A stretch of 7,257 nt of DNA from a virus (IMGVR_UViG_2609459831_000014); one strand, 5' to 3'; positions 542-6,820 are shown, numbered from the stretch's first letter. Made by a program: numbers and translations. Notes: a model not told the origin generated them from the letters alone.

Positions 542-1579
542 TTAACGCTTATCCGCCACCAGTTTGAGCGCGTGTTCCAGCACATTAATGTCTGCACCCG
601 CTTTATGGGCATTTTCACTTAAATAACGCCGCCACTGCCGCGCGCCAGGAATACCCTGGAACAAGCCCAACATATGCCGGGTAATATGACCGAGATACGT
701 CCCCTGGCTGAGTTCACGCTCAATGTACGGATACATGGCGCGCACTACCGCCACCGGATCGGCATCGATATCCGAGGAACCAAAGATCTCCCGGTCTACC
801 GCCGCCAGAATACCCGGATTCTGATACGCCTCGCGCCCGACCATCACGCCATCCATATGTTGCAGGTGTGCTTTGGCCTCTTCCAGCGACTTGATACCAC
901 CGTTAATCGACATTGTCAGATGCGGAAAGTCACGCTTCAGTTGATACACACGCGGATAATCGAGCGGCGGGATCTCACGGTTTTCTTTCGGACTTAACCC
1001 CGAAAGCCAGGCTTTACGTGCATGGATGATGAACATCTCACACTCGCCTTTGCCGGAAACGGTGTTGATGAAATCGCAGAGAAATTCATAGCTGTCCTGG
1101 TCGTCGATGCCAATACGCGTTTTCACCGTCACCGGAATCGACACCACATCGCGCATCGCTTTCACGCAGTCGGCAACCAGCTGCGCATTACCCATCAGAC
1201 ACGCACCAAACATGCCGTTCTGCACCCGGTCAGACGGGCAGCCGACATTCAGGTTGATCTCATCATATCCACGCGCTTCTGCCAGCTTCGCACACTGCGC
1301 CAGCGCCGCCGGATCGCTACCGCCGAGTTGCAACGCTACCGGATGTTCTTCTTCACTATACGCCAGGTAATCACCTTTACCGTGAATAATCGCCCCTGTA
1401 GTTACCATTTCAGTATACAGCAACGTATTGCGGGAAAGCAGACGCAAGAAATAGCGGCAATGTCTGTCCGTCCAGTCGAGCATAGGAGCAATGCTAAACC
1501 GAGAATTCCAGTAAACACCAGTTTTTTCAGGCATCACGCTGGTTTGATTAATTTTTTGTGTTTCATGATTATCGTGCAT
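542..1579 (-). CDS. dusA: tRNA-dihydrouridine synthase A (Dus family flavin oxidoreductase), 345 aa
   Basis: Full-length ORF with Dus-family hallmarks ([32 protein letters not shown]). ATG at 1577-1579, stop TAA 542-544. Alternative internal start at 1532-1534 (MPEKTG...) would give 330 aa. No clear SD before either start. pspG synteny supports the call. Confidence 0.9.
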
Positions 1580-1667: not shown

Positions 1668-2765
1668 ATGGCGTACTATAACATAGAGAAACGACTAAAA
1701 TCCGATGGCACACCACGCTATCGCTGTAATGTGATTATCAAAGAAAAAGGTGTTATCACTTACAGGGAAAGCAAAACATTCCCTAAACATGCTCATGCCA
1801 AAACATGGGGCACACAGAAAGTGATGGAATTAGATCTATATGGCATTCCATCATCAAATGCAGTTGACGGACTTACAGTCCGTGACTTACTACACAAATA
1901 TTTAAATGACCCAAATGCCGGAGGTAAAGCAGGCCGTACTAAAAGATATGTGCTGGAACTGCTTATGGATAGTGACATCTCCGCGATCAAACTATCTGAA
2001 CTGACAGAAAATGACGTAATTGAACATTGCAGGCTAAGAAACAACGCTGGTGCAGGTCCAGCTACAGTTAGCCACGATGTTAGTTATCTTGGCAGTGTTC
2101 TGGATGCTGCCAAACCTGTATATGGAATTAATTACACATCAAACCCAGCAAAAGCCGCTCGTCCATATCTACTTAAACTTGGTTTAATTGGTAAATCAAA
2201 TCGTCGTAATCGTAGACCGGCATCTGATGAACTGGACATGCTCATTGAAGGTCTTCAACAACGATCTACACATAAATGCTCAAAAATTCCGTTCGTTGAT
2301 ATCCTCAAATTTTCTGTGTGGTCATGTATGCGAATCGGTGAAGTATGCCGATTACGATGGGAGGATCTCGATCAGGAACAAAAATCCATACTCGTAAGAG
2401 ACAGGAAAGATCCACGTAAAAAGGAAGGCAACCATATGAAAGTAGCCTTGCTTGGGGAAGCCTGGGATATCGTCCAACGACAACCCAAAAAATCAGAATT
2501 CATTTTTCCATATAACAGCACTTCTGTTACTGCGGGATTCCAGAGGGTAAGAAGCAAATTAGGTATTAAAGATCTGCGATACCATGATTTGCGTAGAGAA
2601 GGGGCAAGTCGCTTATTTGAGGCTGGTTTTAGTATTGAGGAAGTCGCCCAGGTTACAGGGCATCGTTCATTAAACGTGCTATGGCAGGTATATACCGAAC
2701 TGTATCCGAAATCTTTACATAATCGTTTTGAAGAGCTCCAAAGGAGCAGAAATAAGACCTCTTGA
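1668..2765 (+). CDS. int: Tyrosine site-specific integrase, 365 aa, candidate dusA-targeting family
   Basis: ATG 1668 preceded by GAGG (1657-1660). C-terminal catalytic region has the tyrosine-recombinase signature (RYHDLRREGASR with H-x-x-R, then GHRSLNVLWQVYTELY with candidate catalytic Tyr). Divergent from and adjacent to the dusA 5' end. By eye more AT-rich than the dusA/pspG flank. Confidence 0.9.
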   Translation: MAYYNIEKRLKSDGTPRYRCNVIIKEKGVITYRESKTFPKHAHAKTWGTQKVMELDLYGIPSSNAVDGLTVRDLLHKYLNDPNAGGKAGRTKRYVLELLMDSDISAIKLSELTENDVIEHCRLRNNAGAGPATVSHDVSYLGSVLDAAKPVYGINYTSNPAKAARPYLLKLGLIGKSNRRNRRPASDELDMLIEGLQQRSTHKCSKIPFVDILKFSVWSCMRIGEVCRLRWEDLDQEQKSILVRDRKDPRKKEGNHMKVALLGEAWDIVQRQPKKSEFIFPYNSTSVTAGFQRVRSKLGIKDLRYHDLRREGASRLFEAGFSIEEVAQVTGHRSLNVLWQVYTELYPKSLHNRFEELQRSRNKTS

Positions 2766-2826: not shown

Positions 2827-3075
2827 ATGCGTATTGAAATCTGCATAGCCAAAGAAAAAATGACTAAAATGCCAACCGGTGCTGTGGATGCGTTAAAGGA
2901 AGAATTAACCCGACGCATCAGTAAACGTTATGACGATGTAGAGGTGATCGTAAAAGCCACCAGCAACGATGGCCTTTCTGTTACACGCACCGCAGATAAG
3001 GATTCTGCAAAAACTTTTGTTCAGGAGACTCTGAAAGATACCTGGGAATCTGCTGACGAGTGGTTTGTTCACTAA
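2827..3075 (+). CDS. dinI: DinI-family damage-inducible protein (RecA modulator), 82 aa
   Basis: MRIE..IAK...P.GA.DAL..EL.RRI...LSV.....[16 protein letters not shown] follows the DinI pattern including the C-terminal TWESAD-WFV motif. SD AGAGGG 2815-2820. Two LexA boxes immediately upstream. Confidence 0.85.
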
Positions 3076-3218: not shown

Positions 3219-3782
3219 TTATTTCGTTTGAATGCCAGTAACAGGAAATCGTTTATATAGGGTTGATAGCCCAACGTTATAGATACGTGCAACATAACGC
3301 CGTGATTTCCCTGCCGCTATGAGCGCTCCCATCTGTTGCCACTGCTCGTCGCTAAACTTCGGTCTACGCCCACCAATCCGGCCTTTGGATCTGGCAATAG
3401 CCAAACCAGCTAAAGTTCGCTCGCTATTCAAATCAGATTCATACTGCGCAGCAGAAAGAATATTACGGAAATTATAGCGACCACTTGCTGTTTTCAGGTC
3501 TACGCCATCTGTAATACTCCGAAAATTAACACCTTTTTCGTGCAGATTTTGAAACATCAATAGCGCATGCAGCACATTTCTCCCTATCCGATCTAACTTC
3601 CAGACAATCAACTCATCTCCACTTTTCATCACCGTAATTAATTCCTTTAACACAGGGCGATTAGCTGTTCTGCCACTGGCATATTCTTCATAAATTCGCT
3701 CACAGCCAGCTGACTCAAGTGCAAGACGTTGCAACTCTGTATCCTGATGATTTGTTGATACACGAACATACCCGTAAATCAT
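3219..3782 (-). CDS. pin: Serine recombinase / DNA invertase of the Pin-Gin-Hin-Cin family, 187 aa
   Basis: N-terminus MIYGYVRVSTNHQ carries the catalytic Ser in the YVRVST motif; VWKLDRIGR and a C-terminal helix-turn-helix region (GRIGGRRPK ... STLYKR) are present. Length is typical for this family. Adjacent to an invertible tail-fibre segment. Confidence 0.9.
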   Translation of the reverse strand: MIYGYVRVSTNHQDTELQRLALESAGCERIYEEYASGRTANRPVLKELITVMKSGDELIVWKLDRIGRNVLHALLMFQNLHEKGVNFRSITDGVDLKTASGRYNFRNILSAAQYESDLNSERTLAGLAIARSKGRIGGRRPKFSDEQWQQMGALIAAGKSRRYVARIYNVGLSTLYKRFPVTGIQTK

Positions 3783-3787
3783 GAGTG

Positions 3788-3814
3788 CTTCTCCTGTTGT
3801 AAAAACAGGAGAAG
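3788..3814 (-). promoter_or_regulatory. Perfect 11-bp stem-loop sequestering the invertase Shine-Dalgarno
   Basis: CTTCTCCTGTT(3788-3798) and AACAGGAGAAG(3804-3814) with a 5-nt loop. On the minus-strand mRNA the 3' arm AACAGGAGAAG holds the SD AGGAG, 8 nt before the pin AUG. No U-tract follows, so it is not a terminator. Confidence 0.5.
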
Positions 3815-3850
3815 AGGCGAAATATCACCTGATTCAGAAAAATATTTGAA
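3815..3850 (-). promoter_or_regulatory. Candidate sigma70 promoter for pin
   Basis: Minus strand TTCAAA (fwd 3845-3850) - 17 nt - GATATT (fwd 3821-3826). The -35 overlaps the outer half of the left crossover site. Weak match. Confidence 0.25.
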
Positions 3851-3867
3851 AGGTTGGTTTGGGAGAA
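3842..3867. other. Invertase crossover site, left (gix/hix-like 12+2+12)
   Basis: ATATTTGAAAGG-TT-GGTTTGGGAGAA. The inner half GGTTTGGGAGA is identical, in inverted orientation, to the inner half of the site at 5930-5955. AAACC/GGTTT arms flanking a central dinucleotide resemble Gin/Hin-type sites. Confidence 0.5.
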
Positions 3868-4356
3868 GACTCTGCATTACCTGTTGGGGTGCCTGTTCCG
3901 TGGCCTTCAGCCACTCCGCCTACAGGCTGGCTGAAATGCAATGGTGCAGCTTTTTCTGCTGAAGAATACCCGGAACTGGTAAAGGCTTATCCGACAAATA
4001 AATTGCCTGATTTACGTGGTGAGTTTATTCGTGGCTGGGATGATGGGCGTGGTATTGATGCTGGACGTGCCTTGCTAAGTCTTCAGAATGGAGGAGTGGA
4101 ATCACACACCCACCAGGGACAGCTCTTCAGAGTCAGTGATTATCGTACAAAAGAAATACCAGCATCAGAAGTTATGGGAAGAGGATATATTGCAAGCCTG
4201 ACGCCGGGTGCTGATAGCCCACTTGATTTTGATGATTATTCTGTATCCTCTAATCCAAATGGATATTTTGTCGGGAATCAGAGAACAACAGCATATGGGG
4301 TAAATGAAACCCGCCCACGGAATATTGCATTTAACTATATCGTGAGGGCTGCATAA
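3850..4356 (+). CDS. Silent alternative tail-fibre C-terminal cassette (Sv'-like), promoterless with no own start codon; ~168 codons
   Basis: Frame opens right after TGA at 3847-3849. The track start at 3859 is TTG, an in-frame Leu within K-V-G-L-G-E-D. Product (PVGVPVPWPSATPPTGWLKCNGAAFSAEEYPEL...GEFIRGWDDGRG) is a typical variable tail-fibre C-terminal domain. Stop TAA 4354-4356 overlaps the next ATG (TAATG). Confidence 0.75.
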   Translation, partial: KVGLGEDSALPVGVPVPWPSATPPTGWLKCNGAAFSAEEYPELVKAYPTNKLPDLRGEFIRGWDDGRGIDAGRALLSLQNGGVESHTHQGQLFRVSDYRTKEIPASEVMGRGYIASLTPGADSPLDFDDYSVSSNPNGYFVGNQRTTAYGVNETRPRNIAFNYIVRAA

Positions 4357-4958
4357 TGGATAACGCTGTATTAAATAGCGAGCTTATTGCCACGAAGGCG
4401 GGAAATATTCCTGTCTATAACTATGATGGTGAAACACGGGAATATATTTCCACTTCAAATGAATATCTTTCCGTTGGTGTCGGCATTCCGGCATGTTCCT
4501 GTTTAGATGCCCCTGGCACACATAAGGCTGGTTATGCAATCTGCCGTTCTACAGATTTTAACTCATGGGAATATGTGCCAGATCATCGCGGTGAAATCGT
4601 CTATAACACCGAAACGGGAGATGCCAAAGAAATCACAGCTCCGGGTGATTACCCTGAAAATACAACCACTATCGCACCGTTAACGCCATACGATAAATGG
4701 GATGGTGAGAAATGGGTGACAGATACTGAGGCACAACACGGTGCCGCAGTAGAAGTGGCAGAAGCACAACGCCAGTCACTGATTGATGCAGCAATGGCTT
4801 CCATTAGTCTGATTCAGCTGAAATTGCAGGCCGGGCGGAAGCTGATGCAGGCAGAAACCACCCGACTTAACATTGTGCTGGATTACATTGACGCGGTGAC
4901 GGCAACAGATACCAGCACCGCGCCGGATGTCATCTGGCCTGAACTGCCGGAGGCGTAG
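4356..4958 (+). CDS. Tail fibre assembly protein (Tfa/U'-like chaperone), 200 aa, silent orientation
   Basis: ATG 4356 with SD GAGGG (4344-4348), translationally coupled to the upstream cassette. C-terminus ...DTSTAPDVIWPELPEA carries the conserved Tfa terminal motif. Confidence 0.8.
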   Translation: MDNAVLNSELIATKAGNIPVYNYDGETREYISTSNEYLSVGVGIPACSCLDAPGTHKAGYAICRSTDFNSWEYVPDHRGEIVYNTETGDAKEITAPGDYPENTTTIAPLTPYDKWDGEKWVTDTEAQHGAAVEVAEAQRQSLIDAAMASISLIQLKLQAGRKLMQAETTRLNIVLDYIDAVTATDTSTAPDVIWPELPEA

Positions 4959-5367
4959 GCCATTCAATATCTGGCACACTGGAGGTATCAACCAGCTCCA
5001 GTGCGTCCAGATAATCCAGCCACGAATTATATTGCGCCAGTTCCTCGCCTTTCAGACGACCAATAGCGGCTTTACCGGGCCATTGTTTACTGTTCATGTA
5101 TTCGTTGGCCTGATTAATTAATAGCTGTCTTTTTGACTCAGAAATTTCAATAAGTTCTTCATGCGTGGGTGAAGGAATATCTGCCCACGCAGGCATTCCG
5201 TCTGCACCTGCAATACGTCGCTTACCCTGCGGAGGTGTCGCCATAAACGACTCGGCACGTCGGGTTTCAATATCTTTTGCATCATCAGGCCATGTGCCGG
5301 AATCGCGGTATACGGCCTCATTACCAGCCAGATAAAACGCATTTTTTTTAGCACTGTATTTGTACAT
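4930..5367 (-). CDS. Tail fibre assembly protein (Tfa/U-like chaperone), 145 aa, expressed orientation
   Basis: ATG 5365-5367 lies 1 nt after the tail-fibre stop, with a GGGA-type SD inside the fibre 3' end. C-terminus ...DTSSVPDIEWPTPPAVQAR carries the Tfa motif. Its 3' end overlaps the convergent tfa' by 29 nt. Confidence 0.8.
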   Translation of the reverse strand: MYKYSAKKNAFYLAGNEAVYRDSGTWPDDAKDIETRRAESFMATPPQGKRRIAGADGMPAWADIPSPTHEELIEISESKRQLLINQANEYMNSKQWPGKAAIGRLKGEELAQYNSWLDYLDALELVDTSSVPDIEWPTPPAVQAR

Positions 5368-5368
5368 A

Positions 5369-6232
5369 TTATTTCCCTACCGCAATCCAGAAAAATGAAC
5401 TCATGCTGGCTACTGGTGCTCCGCCCGCTGTTGGAATCATCAGATTTCGGACGCCGCATCCTAAATTAGTTATCGTTGGCGCTGAAATTACTGGCGACTG
5501 AACTACGTTAGGAAGCGATACCTGCTGAGGACCAAATCCCACATACATCGGGTATGCAGAGAACGCGACAGGAAACGTAATAAAGATCTCTCCAGTTGAT
5601 GATGGATTGGCTGTCCCCCACTGAATAATCAGACCTGACGGTAATTTTTGCCAGCCAGGGCTGGTCAGGCTGGATGTGAAGTCATTCATATCCGGAATCT
5701 GATTTGCCCCTGAGCCAACATCCCTTTGAGCCGCACTTTTCAGATCAAGATAAGTTCTTAGTTCAGCCTTATCCTTACCGCTTAAATCTGTCAGTGTCTG
5801 GTCTTTTGGTTGCGCATAGTCTTTTGTTGCCAGACGAACTACTGTATTTGTTCTGGCGAATCGCATATACGGGGCATTGACGTTACTACTGTCAAACCCT
5901 GCAATTTTACATTCATCACCAATTAATGCATCTCCCAAACCAAGGTTTTCGAGAGCCGTTTTCACCGTGCCATCCGATTTGATATCGCCAAACGGATTCT
6001 TGCGGCTTAACAGCAGCGCACGAAGCGCGGTAAGCAACTGGTCGTGCCGCGCCTTCTCCAGGCTGGCACCGGATGCCTCCACCACGCTGCAGAGTTCTTC
6101 CTGCAACATATCAAAGTAGTCATCATCCAGATCGGTGGCAGGTGTGCCGGTCTGGGGGTTACCACGGGTAAAACCGTTCTTCCCCGCGCCGAACTTATCC
6201 TTCTGCGCGGTTTTCGTGTCTATACGATGCAT
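5369..6232 (-). CDS. Phage tail fibre protein, 287 aa: constant N-terminal part (6232 to ~5944) plus variable C-terminal part (5943 to 5369)
   Basis: ATG 6230-6232 with SD GGAG 7 nt upstream, starting 3 nt after the stop of the upstream tail gene. The crossover site lies inside the gene at codons ...ENLGLGD.... Size and position match an e14 StfP / Mu S-like fibre (from memory). Confidence 0.85.
5930..5955. other. Invertase crossover site, right (inside the tail fibre gene)
   Basis: ATCTCCCAAACC-AA-GGTTTTCGAGAG, an imperfect dyad. Its inner half is the reverse complement of GGTTTGGGAGA at 3856-3866. Confidence 0.5.
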
Positions 6233-6235
6233 GGA

Positions 6236-6820
6236 TTACTCCGGATATTTAAAAATCACATAGGTATGCGACGGGCAGAGTTTGTTAAGAACACACTCGA
6301 CAACGGTGTCGCCCCAGATACGCAGGGCAGAATCACAGGGATCGCCACATGTCATCCAGGTGGTGTTGGTGGCGGCTGGCATGTTGATCTGCCAGTAATA
6401 CCGCCATTCCGGCGCATTCACCGCGTCAGTACAGGCCGATGAGCAGGTGAAGGTGCTTTTGTCGTATCGCGTGATGGTGGCATCTGGCCTGCCCAGGGCA
6501 GCAAGCTGTGCAAGATAAAAATCCTCGTTGATGCCGCCCGCCAGGTTAACCTTCGCATCCAGCCGTTGCTGACGCTGGCGAAGAGTCTGCGTTCCCGCCG
6601 GAATACATTCATCCGGCAGACCGCACAGACGCTCCCAGCGGTTTATCAGTTCAGTGGTGGTGCGCGGATCCAGCTCCCGCATCAGGGCATCCGCACGCTG
6701 ATGAACGCGGGTTAATGACGGTGCCGCACCGGCAATCGCCGGATCTCTGGCTGACCACGCCGGACCGGGTGGCAACAGTGCCGACAACAGACGGATGTAA
6801 TCATCGTTTGTCACGTCCAT
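6236..6820 (-). CDS. Phage tail/baseplate protein, 194 aa (Mu gp48 / e14 YmfQ-like by position and size)
   Basis: ATG 6818-6820 and stop TAA 6236-6238, 3 nt before the tail fibre start. Its start overlaps the stop of the upstream gene by 10 nt (ATGGACGTGA). Product assignment rests on synteny and size, not on a recognised motif. Confidence 0.7.

Follow-up and report, generated by a model that had tools for sequence, protein, structure and literature searches.

A probable two-state tail-fibre switch next to a PinL-like serine invertase in an Escherichia coli prophage

The window examined in this study is the whole stretch of 7,257 nt, one strand, from the virus IMGVR_UViG_2609459831_000014, and the feature in question, at 3,219-6,232, comprises a serine DNA invertase gene and an adjoining segment that holds two alternative C-terminal parts of a tail fibre. 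Our analysis indicates that the window very probably represents a tail-fibre switch with two states, akin to e14 P, Mu G and P1 C, in an Escherichia coli prophage that is related to SKA5, has a Mu-like baseplate and is inserted at the 5′ end of dusA. In the orientation captured, transcription that passes through the upstream tail genes, baseplate J and ymfQ, would continue into the fibre gene and provide a fibre with a Gp53-like C terminus together with a 145-aa chaperone. The invertase would then bind both 26-bp crossover sites, cleave the DNA at the central TT/AA and religate the strands after rotation; upon reversal of the 2086-bp segment, the same N terminus would be fused in frame to a Collar-type C terminus accompanied by a 200-aa chaperone. 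The gene map rests on an open reading frame (ORF) listing and Pfam scans of the window (Table 1). An earlier prediction made for this stretch, hereafter the original prediction, had placed the same ORFs, and all of its coordinates held, with Pfam confirming the families that it had stated for all five genes.

The sites at which the segment would be inverted were examined through motif searches and alignment. The motif GGTTTGGGAGA occurs exactly twice in the window, at 3856-3866(+) and 5931-5941(-), compared with a chance expectation of 0.10, and a broader pattern that combines the core with a half-site, AAASSWWGGTTTNNGAGA, gave three matches versus 0.01 expected. The left, invertase-proximal site reads ATATTTGAAAGG-TT-GGTTTGGGAGAA, and the right, fibre-internal site reads ATCTCCCAAACC-AA-GGTTTTCGAGAG, or CTCTCGAAAACC-TT-GGTTTGGGAGAT on the other strand. 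The cores TT and AA are one dinucleotide on opposite strands, the two sites are inverted relative to each other, and their inner half-sites agree at 11 of 12 bases. Aligned with the sites taken from annotated records, both are almost identical to the e14 pix pair and clearly related to P1 cixL and to the Mu/D108 repeats. Furthermore, the left site is identical in SKA5, M8, SM107 and phi80, and the e14 site within stfP matches the right site exactly in the outer half and the flank. The inverted flanking sites had been proposed to be of the serine-invertase type, and this was borne out, as they align properly with pix, cix and gix instead of proving unrelated to them; the segment, put at ~2.1 kb, measures 2086 bp between the central dinucleotides. 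An inverted repeat of 18 nt is by itself unexceptional, as the window contains 33 inverted pairs, some of them longer. The present repeat is significant because it matches the invertase-site motif and because of its position, at the boundary between the constant and variable parts of the fibre on one side and at the 5′ end of a promoterless ORF, in a compatible frame, on the other. Within the 287-aa fibre ORF, the right site corresponds to codons 93-101, with the core dinucleotide in codon 97.

A search tolerating three mismatches found no third crossover site in the window. The inverted repeat 4877-4894/5003-5020 (18 nt, 83% complementary) was considered as an extra site but was rejected, because it arises from the homology of the chaperone genes, whose 3′ ends (LDYIDA and LDYLDA) mirror each other; equivalent pairs are present in e14 and SKA5. 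A multi-site system, such as the p15B Min region or the Rci shufflon, was likewise rejected, because there are two sites only and the recombinase is a serine and not a tyrosine enzyme.

The consequence of inversion for the fibre was then derived in silico. Reversal of the segment converted the 287-aa fibre into an uninterrupted, in-frame fibre of 263 aa, in which Collar replaces Gp53-like_C. The first 100 residues are common to both forms, because the constant part (Sc) lies outside the segment and the last few shared codons come from the inner half-site that both arrangements have. Natural E. coli proteins of 263 aa are 95-98% identical to the predicted fusion, and their genes lie between ymfQ, directly upstream, and a 200-aa chaperone gene, downstream. 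The silent C terminus (Sv′) lacks a start of its own and is preceded by an in-frame TGA at 3847-3849; it was identified by Pfam as Collar (E = 1.5e-15) and also matched the tip of T4 gp37 (2XGF, E = 4e-18), whereas the expressed C terminus (Sv) was assigned to Gp53-like_C (E = 7e-13). The two C-terminal domains had been described as unrelated in sequence, and the comparison agreed with this description, with a BLASTP E value of 0.09 between them and different Pfam families. Judged from the sequences, the two tips would confer two receptor specificities, and inversion would presumably alter the host range. The constant part is 97% identical to the N terminus of e14 StfP and has weak similarity to the Mu fibre protein S (5YVQ/8JU3).

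Each variable C terminus is followed, inside the segment, by a chaperone gene of its own. Both chaperones belong to Caudo_TAP (Tfa′, E = 4e-30; Tfa, E = 2e-29); they are related in their C-terminal halves only (34% identity, E = 5e-12), and their genes are convergent with a 29-nt overlap. Together, the ORFs, the Pfam assignments and the in-frame inverted fusion uphold the original claim that a second, promoterless fibre C terminus with its Tfa lies convergently opposite to the fibre C terminus and Tfa in use.

Comparison of sister prophages demonstrated that sites of the window type recombine in nature, because E. coli M8 differs from RSHH22 and SK6988 by an exact inversion between such sites. 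When the M8 locus was inverted in silico, it was found in RSHH22 and SK6988 in one piece, at 100.0% identity over 2,601 nt. Between M8 and RSHH22, the flanks are 99.98% and 100% identical over 4.4 and 3.4 kb, respectively, and a centre of 1,827 nt is inverted at 100% identity, with the breakpoints located inside both sites. Similarly, window positions 3854-5133 are inverted relative to SM107, with both flanks collinear; SM107 has the window's Collar cassette turned round and fused to the constant part. About 142 of 5,426 complete E. coli genomes carry the window invertase together with the proximal site. In e14, inversion of the segment within clonal cultures has been documented (PMC4272514). 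As a separate observation, the SM107 fibre gene, which consists of the constant part and a Collar tip (L005 5070-5591), is annotated as an incomplete pseudogene, and this expressed copy may be damaged.

The invertase gene is intact. Its product contains a Resolvase domain at residues 2-135 (E = 3e-36) and an HTH_7 domain at residues 138-179 (E = 7e-12), and its closest solved structure is that of Gin (3UJ3, E = 1e-56, aligned over residues 1-181). The residues aligned to Hin Y6, R8, S10, Q14, R43, D65, R66 and R69 are all kept; the Hin numbering used here is consistent with the residues named in PMC3798978. An inactivating change in the invertase, which the original prediction had named, together with a lack of read-level orientation heterogeneity, as a sign against the switch, was not seen, since the ORF is full length and every catalytic residue checked is retained. 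The protein is 100% identical in phage SKA5, E. coli M8 and E. coli SM107, and RSHH22 has the same WP accession as M8. The window invertase itself would presumably perform the inversion in this strain.

The family assignment of the enzyme required a correction. The designation as a Pin-family recombinase stands in the broad sense of a serine DNA invertase, but membership in the Pin/Cin/Gin/Hin group does not, because the enzyme shares only 55% of its residues with PinE, 53% with Cin, 50% with Gin and 45% with Hin, whereas these four are 66-83% identical among themselves and the members of the classical group at large 63-85%. Its relatives are phi80 PinL and the invertases of mEp237, HK225 and Citrobacter phage Omnitron (79-80%), as well as that of mEpX1 (74%). 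Given 45-55% identity to the classical group versus 74-80% to the PinL cluster, we regard the enzyme as a member of a PinL-like sister branch and not as a Pin orthologue. Members of this clade have a distinctive helix-E region, SGRYNFRNILSAAQYESDLNSERT, with Arg at the position of Hin H107 and Tyr at that of Hin M115; the DNA-binding region (GRIGGRRPK ... STLYKRFP) agrees with PinE. Within the same cluster, the mEpX1 invertase (L011 3501-4049) is Pin/Gin-like over its first ~60 residues (MQIGYVRVSTNDQNTDLQR..., where Hin positions 48 and 51 are basic) and PinL-like in the remainder, a pattern that suggests recombination within invertase genes. A literature search found no dedicated study of phage SKA5 or pinL and nothing relevant on dusA prophages with invertases.

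Table 1. Features of the 7,257-nt window and the basis of their assignment
Feature	Position	Strand	Basis
pspG, then dusA	dusA 542-1579	-	ORF/Pfam
Tyrosine integrase	1668-2765	+	ORF/Pfam
DinI-like gene	2827-3075	+	ORF/Pfam
Serine DNA invertase, 187 aa, PinL-like branch	3219-3782	-	Pfam Resolvase + HTH_7
Invertase leader hairpin	3788-3814	-	RNA fold
Invertase-proximal (left) 26-bp crossover site, core TT 3854-3855	3842-3867	+	Motif, pix alignment
Invertible segment, 2086 bp between both core dinucleotides	3856-5941		In-silico inversion, homologues
Silent alternative fibre C terminus Sv′, Collar type	3856-4356 (ORF 3859-4356)	+	Pfam Collar
Tfa′, 200-aa tail-fibre assembly chaperone, TfaE-like, paired with Sv′	4356-4958	+	Pfam Caudo_TAP
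Tfa, 145-aa chaperone paired with the expressed tip	4930-5367	-	Pfam Caudo_TAP
Fibre gene, 287 aa	5369-6232	-	Pfam Gp53-like_C
Expressed variable fibre C terminus Sv, Gp53-like_C type	5369-5941	-	Pfam
Fibre-internal (right) 26-bp crossover site, core AA 5942-5943	5930-5955	+	Motif, pix alignment
Constant fibre N-terminal part Sc, outside the segment	5944-6232	-	In-silico inversion, e14 match
YmfQ/Mu gp48-like gene	6236-6820	-	Pfam Phage_Mu_Gp48
3′ end of baseplate J gene	6811 to window end (7257)	-	Pfam Baseplate_J

The window is not an assembly artefact, because NCBI assembly GCA_000713975.1 (contig JOQG01000009.1) matches all of it at 100% identity, and a Logan assembly of SRR14012094 matches 4.2 kb of it, also at 100%. 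An artefact had been suspected from a 99.7% match to a segment of E. coli B and was ruled out by these two separate assembly records.

Several observations nonetheless weigh against an active switch in this prophage. The window's own cassette pair was not found in the opposite orientation at this locus; the two assemblies in which the locus occurs agree in orientation. In the right site, the last base of the inner half is T, as opposed to A in the sister prophages. The inversion between sister strains could also stem from another resident invertase that acts in trans. Furthermore, Hin residues K47, R48, K51, Q151, R154 and L155 are needed for Fis/enhancer activation (McLean et al., PMC3798978), and three of these six are changed in the window invertase (R48 to E, K51 to T and R154 to A), with K47, Q151 and L155 kept. 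No clear pair of Fis sites was found at the 5′ end of the invertase gene, although sequence alone cannot settle the matter, given how degenerate Fis sites are. The searches for the inverted form differ in what they can tell. With the inverted left junction as query, the 5,426 complete E. coli genomes gave matches to the invertase half alone; this search is uninformative because the window's cassette pair is absent from this locus in all complete genomes, which covered at most 87% of the window. Exact-match scans of metagenome contigs detected neither the inverted junction nor the native junction used as a control, and since the native junction was also absent, the metagenome collection does not contain this locus.

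The shared orientation of both assemblies, the failure to find an inverted copy and the base change in the right site would all be expected if the locus were a frozen relic, that is, if its parts looked intact but the segment no longer inverted in this strain. Decay of this kind has precedents, as a truncated invertase adjoins the nearly identical segment in E. coli B, which has probably become frozen, and phi80 retains one site and a truncated PinL. We consider such a relic improbable for the window, however, given that the invertase is full length with all catalytic residues and identical in protein sequence to that of prophages that differ by an exact inversion, and that the cores match along with 11 of the 12 inner half-site bases. 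Moreover, fixation cannot be concluded from two assemblies, as each gives the majority orientation only. It is also conceivable that other resident Pin-type invertases mainly use these sites and that the adjacent PinL-like gene plays a minor part. The sites hardly differ from pix, several such loci per E. coli genome are typical (a median of three places per genome matched parts of the window), and PinQ, only 38% identical to PinE, acts on the e14 sites and inverts the e14 segment in trans (PMC12529663). Yet the proximal site, the leader and the invertase gene are conserved as a unit, with the stretch from site to ATG identical in phi80, SKA5, M8 and SM107, and the DNA-binding region of the invertase agrees with that of PinE, which makes a minor role of the adjacent gene rather unlikely.

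A further question is whom the inversion serves. Inversion of e14 P produces a chimeric fibre protein that blocks T2 adsorption (PMC12529663), and the window resembles e14 closely enough, with 97% identity in the constant part and 69% identity between the alternative fusion and the corresponding e14 fusion, that the switch might have been domesticated by the host, with inversion mainly serving the bacterium, for example, through a chimeric fibre that blocks the adsorption of other phages. We find this hard to favour, since a full set of Mu-like baseplate genes accompanies the switch, unlike in e14, and since the closest phage record, SKA5, is a genome of 37.6 kb that was submitted as a complete phage and contains this module as well. 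The intact chaperone for each tip is also what is expected of fibres that are actually assembled, and the bacterial and phage roles are not mutually exclusive. A phage-borne tail-fibre switch, presumably operated by its own invertase, is the reading that we retain.

If the window invertase drives the switch, its control could differ from that of its classical counterparts. In Gin, Cin, Pin and Hin systems, a Fis-bound recombinational enhancer lies in cis in the 5′ part of the invertase gene, and the substitution H107Y renders Hin Fis-independent. In the window, the stretch that aligns with the P1 enhancer, annotated at cin nt 19-90, is partly conserved, with the outer G or C changed at both classical Fis-site positions. 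A profile of synonymous-codon conservation gave no signal at the enhancer region in the PinL-like clade and a weak one in the classical clade, on too few sequences. Just upstream of the invertase gene, the leader contains a hairpin with an 11-bp stem and a 5-nt loop, the 3′ arm of which holds the AGGAG ribosome-binding site, 5 nt before the ATG. The leader region 3770-3845(-) folds at -24.8 kcal/mol (z = -5.0), and none of 200 shuffled sequences was as stable. The 60 nt between the proximal site and the invertase ATG are identical in SKA5, M8, SM107 and phi80, where the repeat is annotated as IR3 upstream of pinL. It is plausible that the hairpin keeps invertase translation low. A scan for consensus promoters gave no convincing invertase promoter; a weak TTCAAA-18-GATATT that overlaps the outer half of the left site was seen by eye, and its role as a promoter is speculation.

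The changed residues at the H107 and M115 positions, the nonconserved basic patch of helix B and R154, and the lack of a clear enhancer are the reasons for considering altered control. They led us to a broader and admittedly doubtful proposal, namely, that the PinL-like invertases (the window enzyme, phi80 PinL, mEp237, Omnitron and KpGz_1) might form a separate branch of DNA invertases that is controlled unlike the classical Fis/enhancer scheme, with an output perhaps limited by the leader hairpin, and that such enzymes might also exchange whole fibre cassettes between unrelated prophages in one cell.

Exchange of cassettes between prophages is indicated by the E. coli B comparison. Window positions 3849-5954 are 99.67% identical over 2106 nt, collinear and with both sites included, to a P2-like prophage remnant of BL21(DE3) (L007 2481-4586). 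This remnant, present in the E. coli B strains BL21(DE3) and REL606, is in the same expressed state as the window but differs in having a P2 H-type constant part (540-aa fibre), P2-type baseplate genes and a truncated invertase pseudogene. The similarity ends at the outer edges of the sites, and the flanks are unrelated; at the protein level, Sv is 99.3% identical to the C terminus of the 540-aa P2-type fibre, and this similarity stops at the crossover site. Because the near-identical segments lose their similarity at the sites, the alignment suggests that the invertible cassette moved en bloc between two unrelated tail types.

Rearranged versions of such loci occur in further records. On a contig of about threefold coverage (ENA ERZ1744522 NODE_890; L020 6001-9212), one side of the segment carries a Mu-like baseplate, ymfQ and a Collar-type fibre, and the other side carries, in convergent orientation, the gene for a 467-aa P2-type fibre along with P2 gene I and baseplate genes. 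This arrangement may reflect a chromosomal inversion between two prophages at the crossover sites or a chimeric metagenome assembly. In a related prophage (L017 8270-10384; also L018 and L019), the Collar-type fibre occupies the expressed position and is accompanied by a silent Gp53-like fragment, a 63-aa invertase remnant and then a gene of the GmrSD family (type IV restriction), an arrangement that resembles a frozen switch adjoining a defence gene.

The genes around the switch were then compared with those of related prophages. On the fibre side, the order of the upstream genes, ymfQ and baseplate J, is common to SKA5, M8 and e14; transcription probably enters the fibre gene from that side, and the fibre gene would be cotranscribed with them. 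On the other side, the integrase gene diverges from the 5′ end of dusA (542-2765), the junction has an identical layout in SM107, M8 and RSHH22, and in the SKA5 record a short 5′ fragment of dusA adjoins the integrase. This layout is that expected of a dusA-integrating element. Between the integrase and DinI-like genes, two LexA-box-type CTGT-N8-ACAG motifs occur at 2768-2783 and 2796-2811, just upstream of the DinI-like gene, with 0.09 expected by chance; in the equivalent module of phi80, predicted LexA sites adjoin dinL.

Taken as a whole, the switch is an ordinary, intact case of a well-known phage device, and its only unusual part is an invertase from a little-studied branch. The mechanism is a textbook one, and the locus therefore tells little that is new about phage host-range variation. 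Its practical value lies in annotation, as RefSeq names the parts only "recombinase family protein" and "phage tail protein", and the silent C terminus is easily called a separate gene or a pseudogene. Besides this, attention is due to the uncharacterised PinL-like branch with its altered Fis-interface residues, the hairpin over the ribosome-binding site, and the cassette exchange between Mu-like and P2-like prophages. Should the PinL-like branch prove to be naturally Fis-independent, it could be of interest for engineering serine invertases as genetic switches.

Finally, the locus was set against the systems already known. The original prediction had recognised the Mu G/P1 C/e14 P architecture here, which our comparison confirmed, with e14 as the closest match on account of its constant part, its nearly pix-type sites and its gene order. 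In e14 P of E. coli K-12, the order and orientation ymfQ-stfP-tfaP-tfaE-stfE′-pinE are the same as in the window, the Collar and TfaE cassette shares 91-95% DNA identity over parts of its length (91% between the Tfa′ region and e14 tfaE), and the convergent chaperone genes have the same 29-nt overlap. The two differ in the invertase, as given above for PinE, in segment length (about 1.8 kb in e14 versus 2086 bp) and in the sequence of the expressed tip; moreover, e14 is a decayed element at icd, whereas the window lies at dusA with the full Mu-like baseplate module. Mu G/Gin and P1 C/Cin also have a constant N terminus outside the segment, two convergent pairs of C terminus and chaperone inside it, an invertase gene that adjoins the segment on the outside and is transcribed outward, and related 26-bp sites. 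However, Gin and Cin are only 50-53% identical to the window enzyme, their segments are 3-4.2 kb with much longer fibres, the core of Mu gix is TC instead of TT, and no counterpart of the Fis-bound enhancer annotated in P1 cin could be recognised in the window.

The phages with PinL-like invertases were compared as well. In phi80, the proximal site, leader and hairpin are identical to those of the window and a DinI-family gene lies nearby, as it also does in mEp237. In contrast, the lambda-like siphovirus phi80 has one site with nothing but a Collar-domain pseudogene fragment beside it (L009 4233-5019); its PinL ORF stops at 172 aa, short of the end of the recognition helix, and the invertase looks orphaned. 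The mEp237 and mEpX1 records, in which sites were not searched, contain no alternative fibre cassettes, whereas the window enzyme lies beside a complete switch. Phage SKA5 (OR670062) and the dusA prophages of M8, RSHH22, SK6988 and SM107 share with the window the integrase, DinI-like gene, invertase, sites, constant fibre part, baseplate genes and chromosomal site, and they differ from it in that the cassettes within their segments are of other sequence and length.

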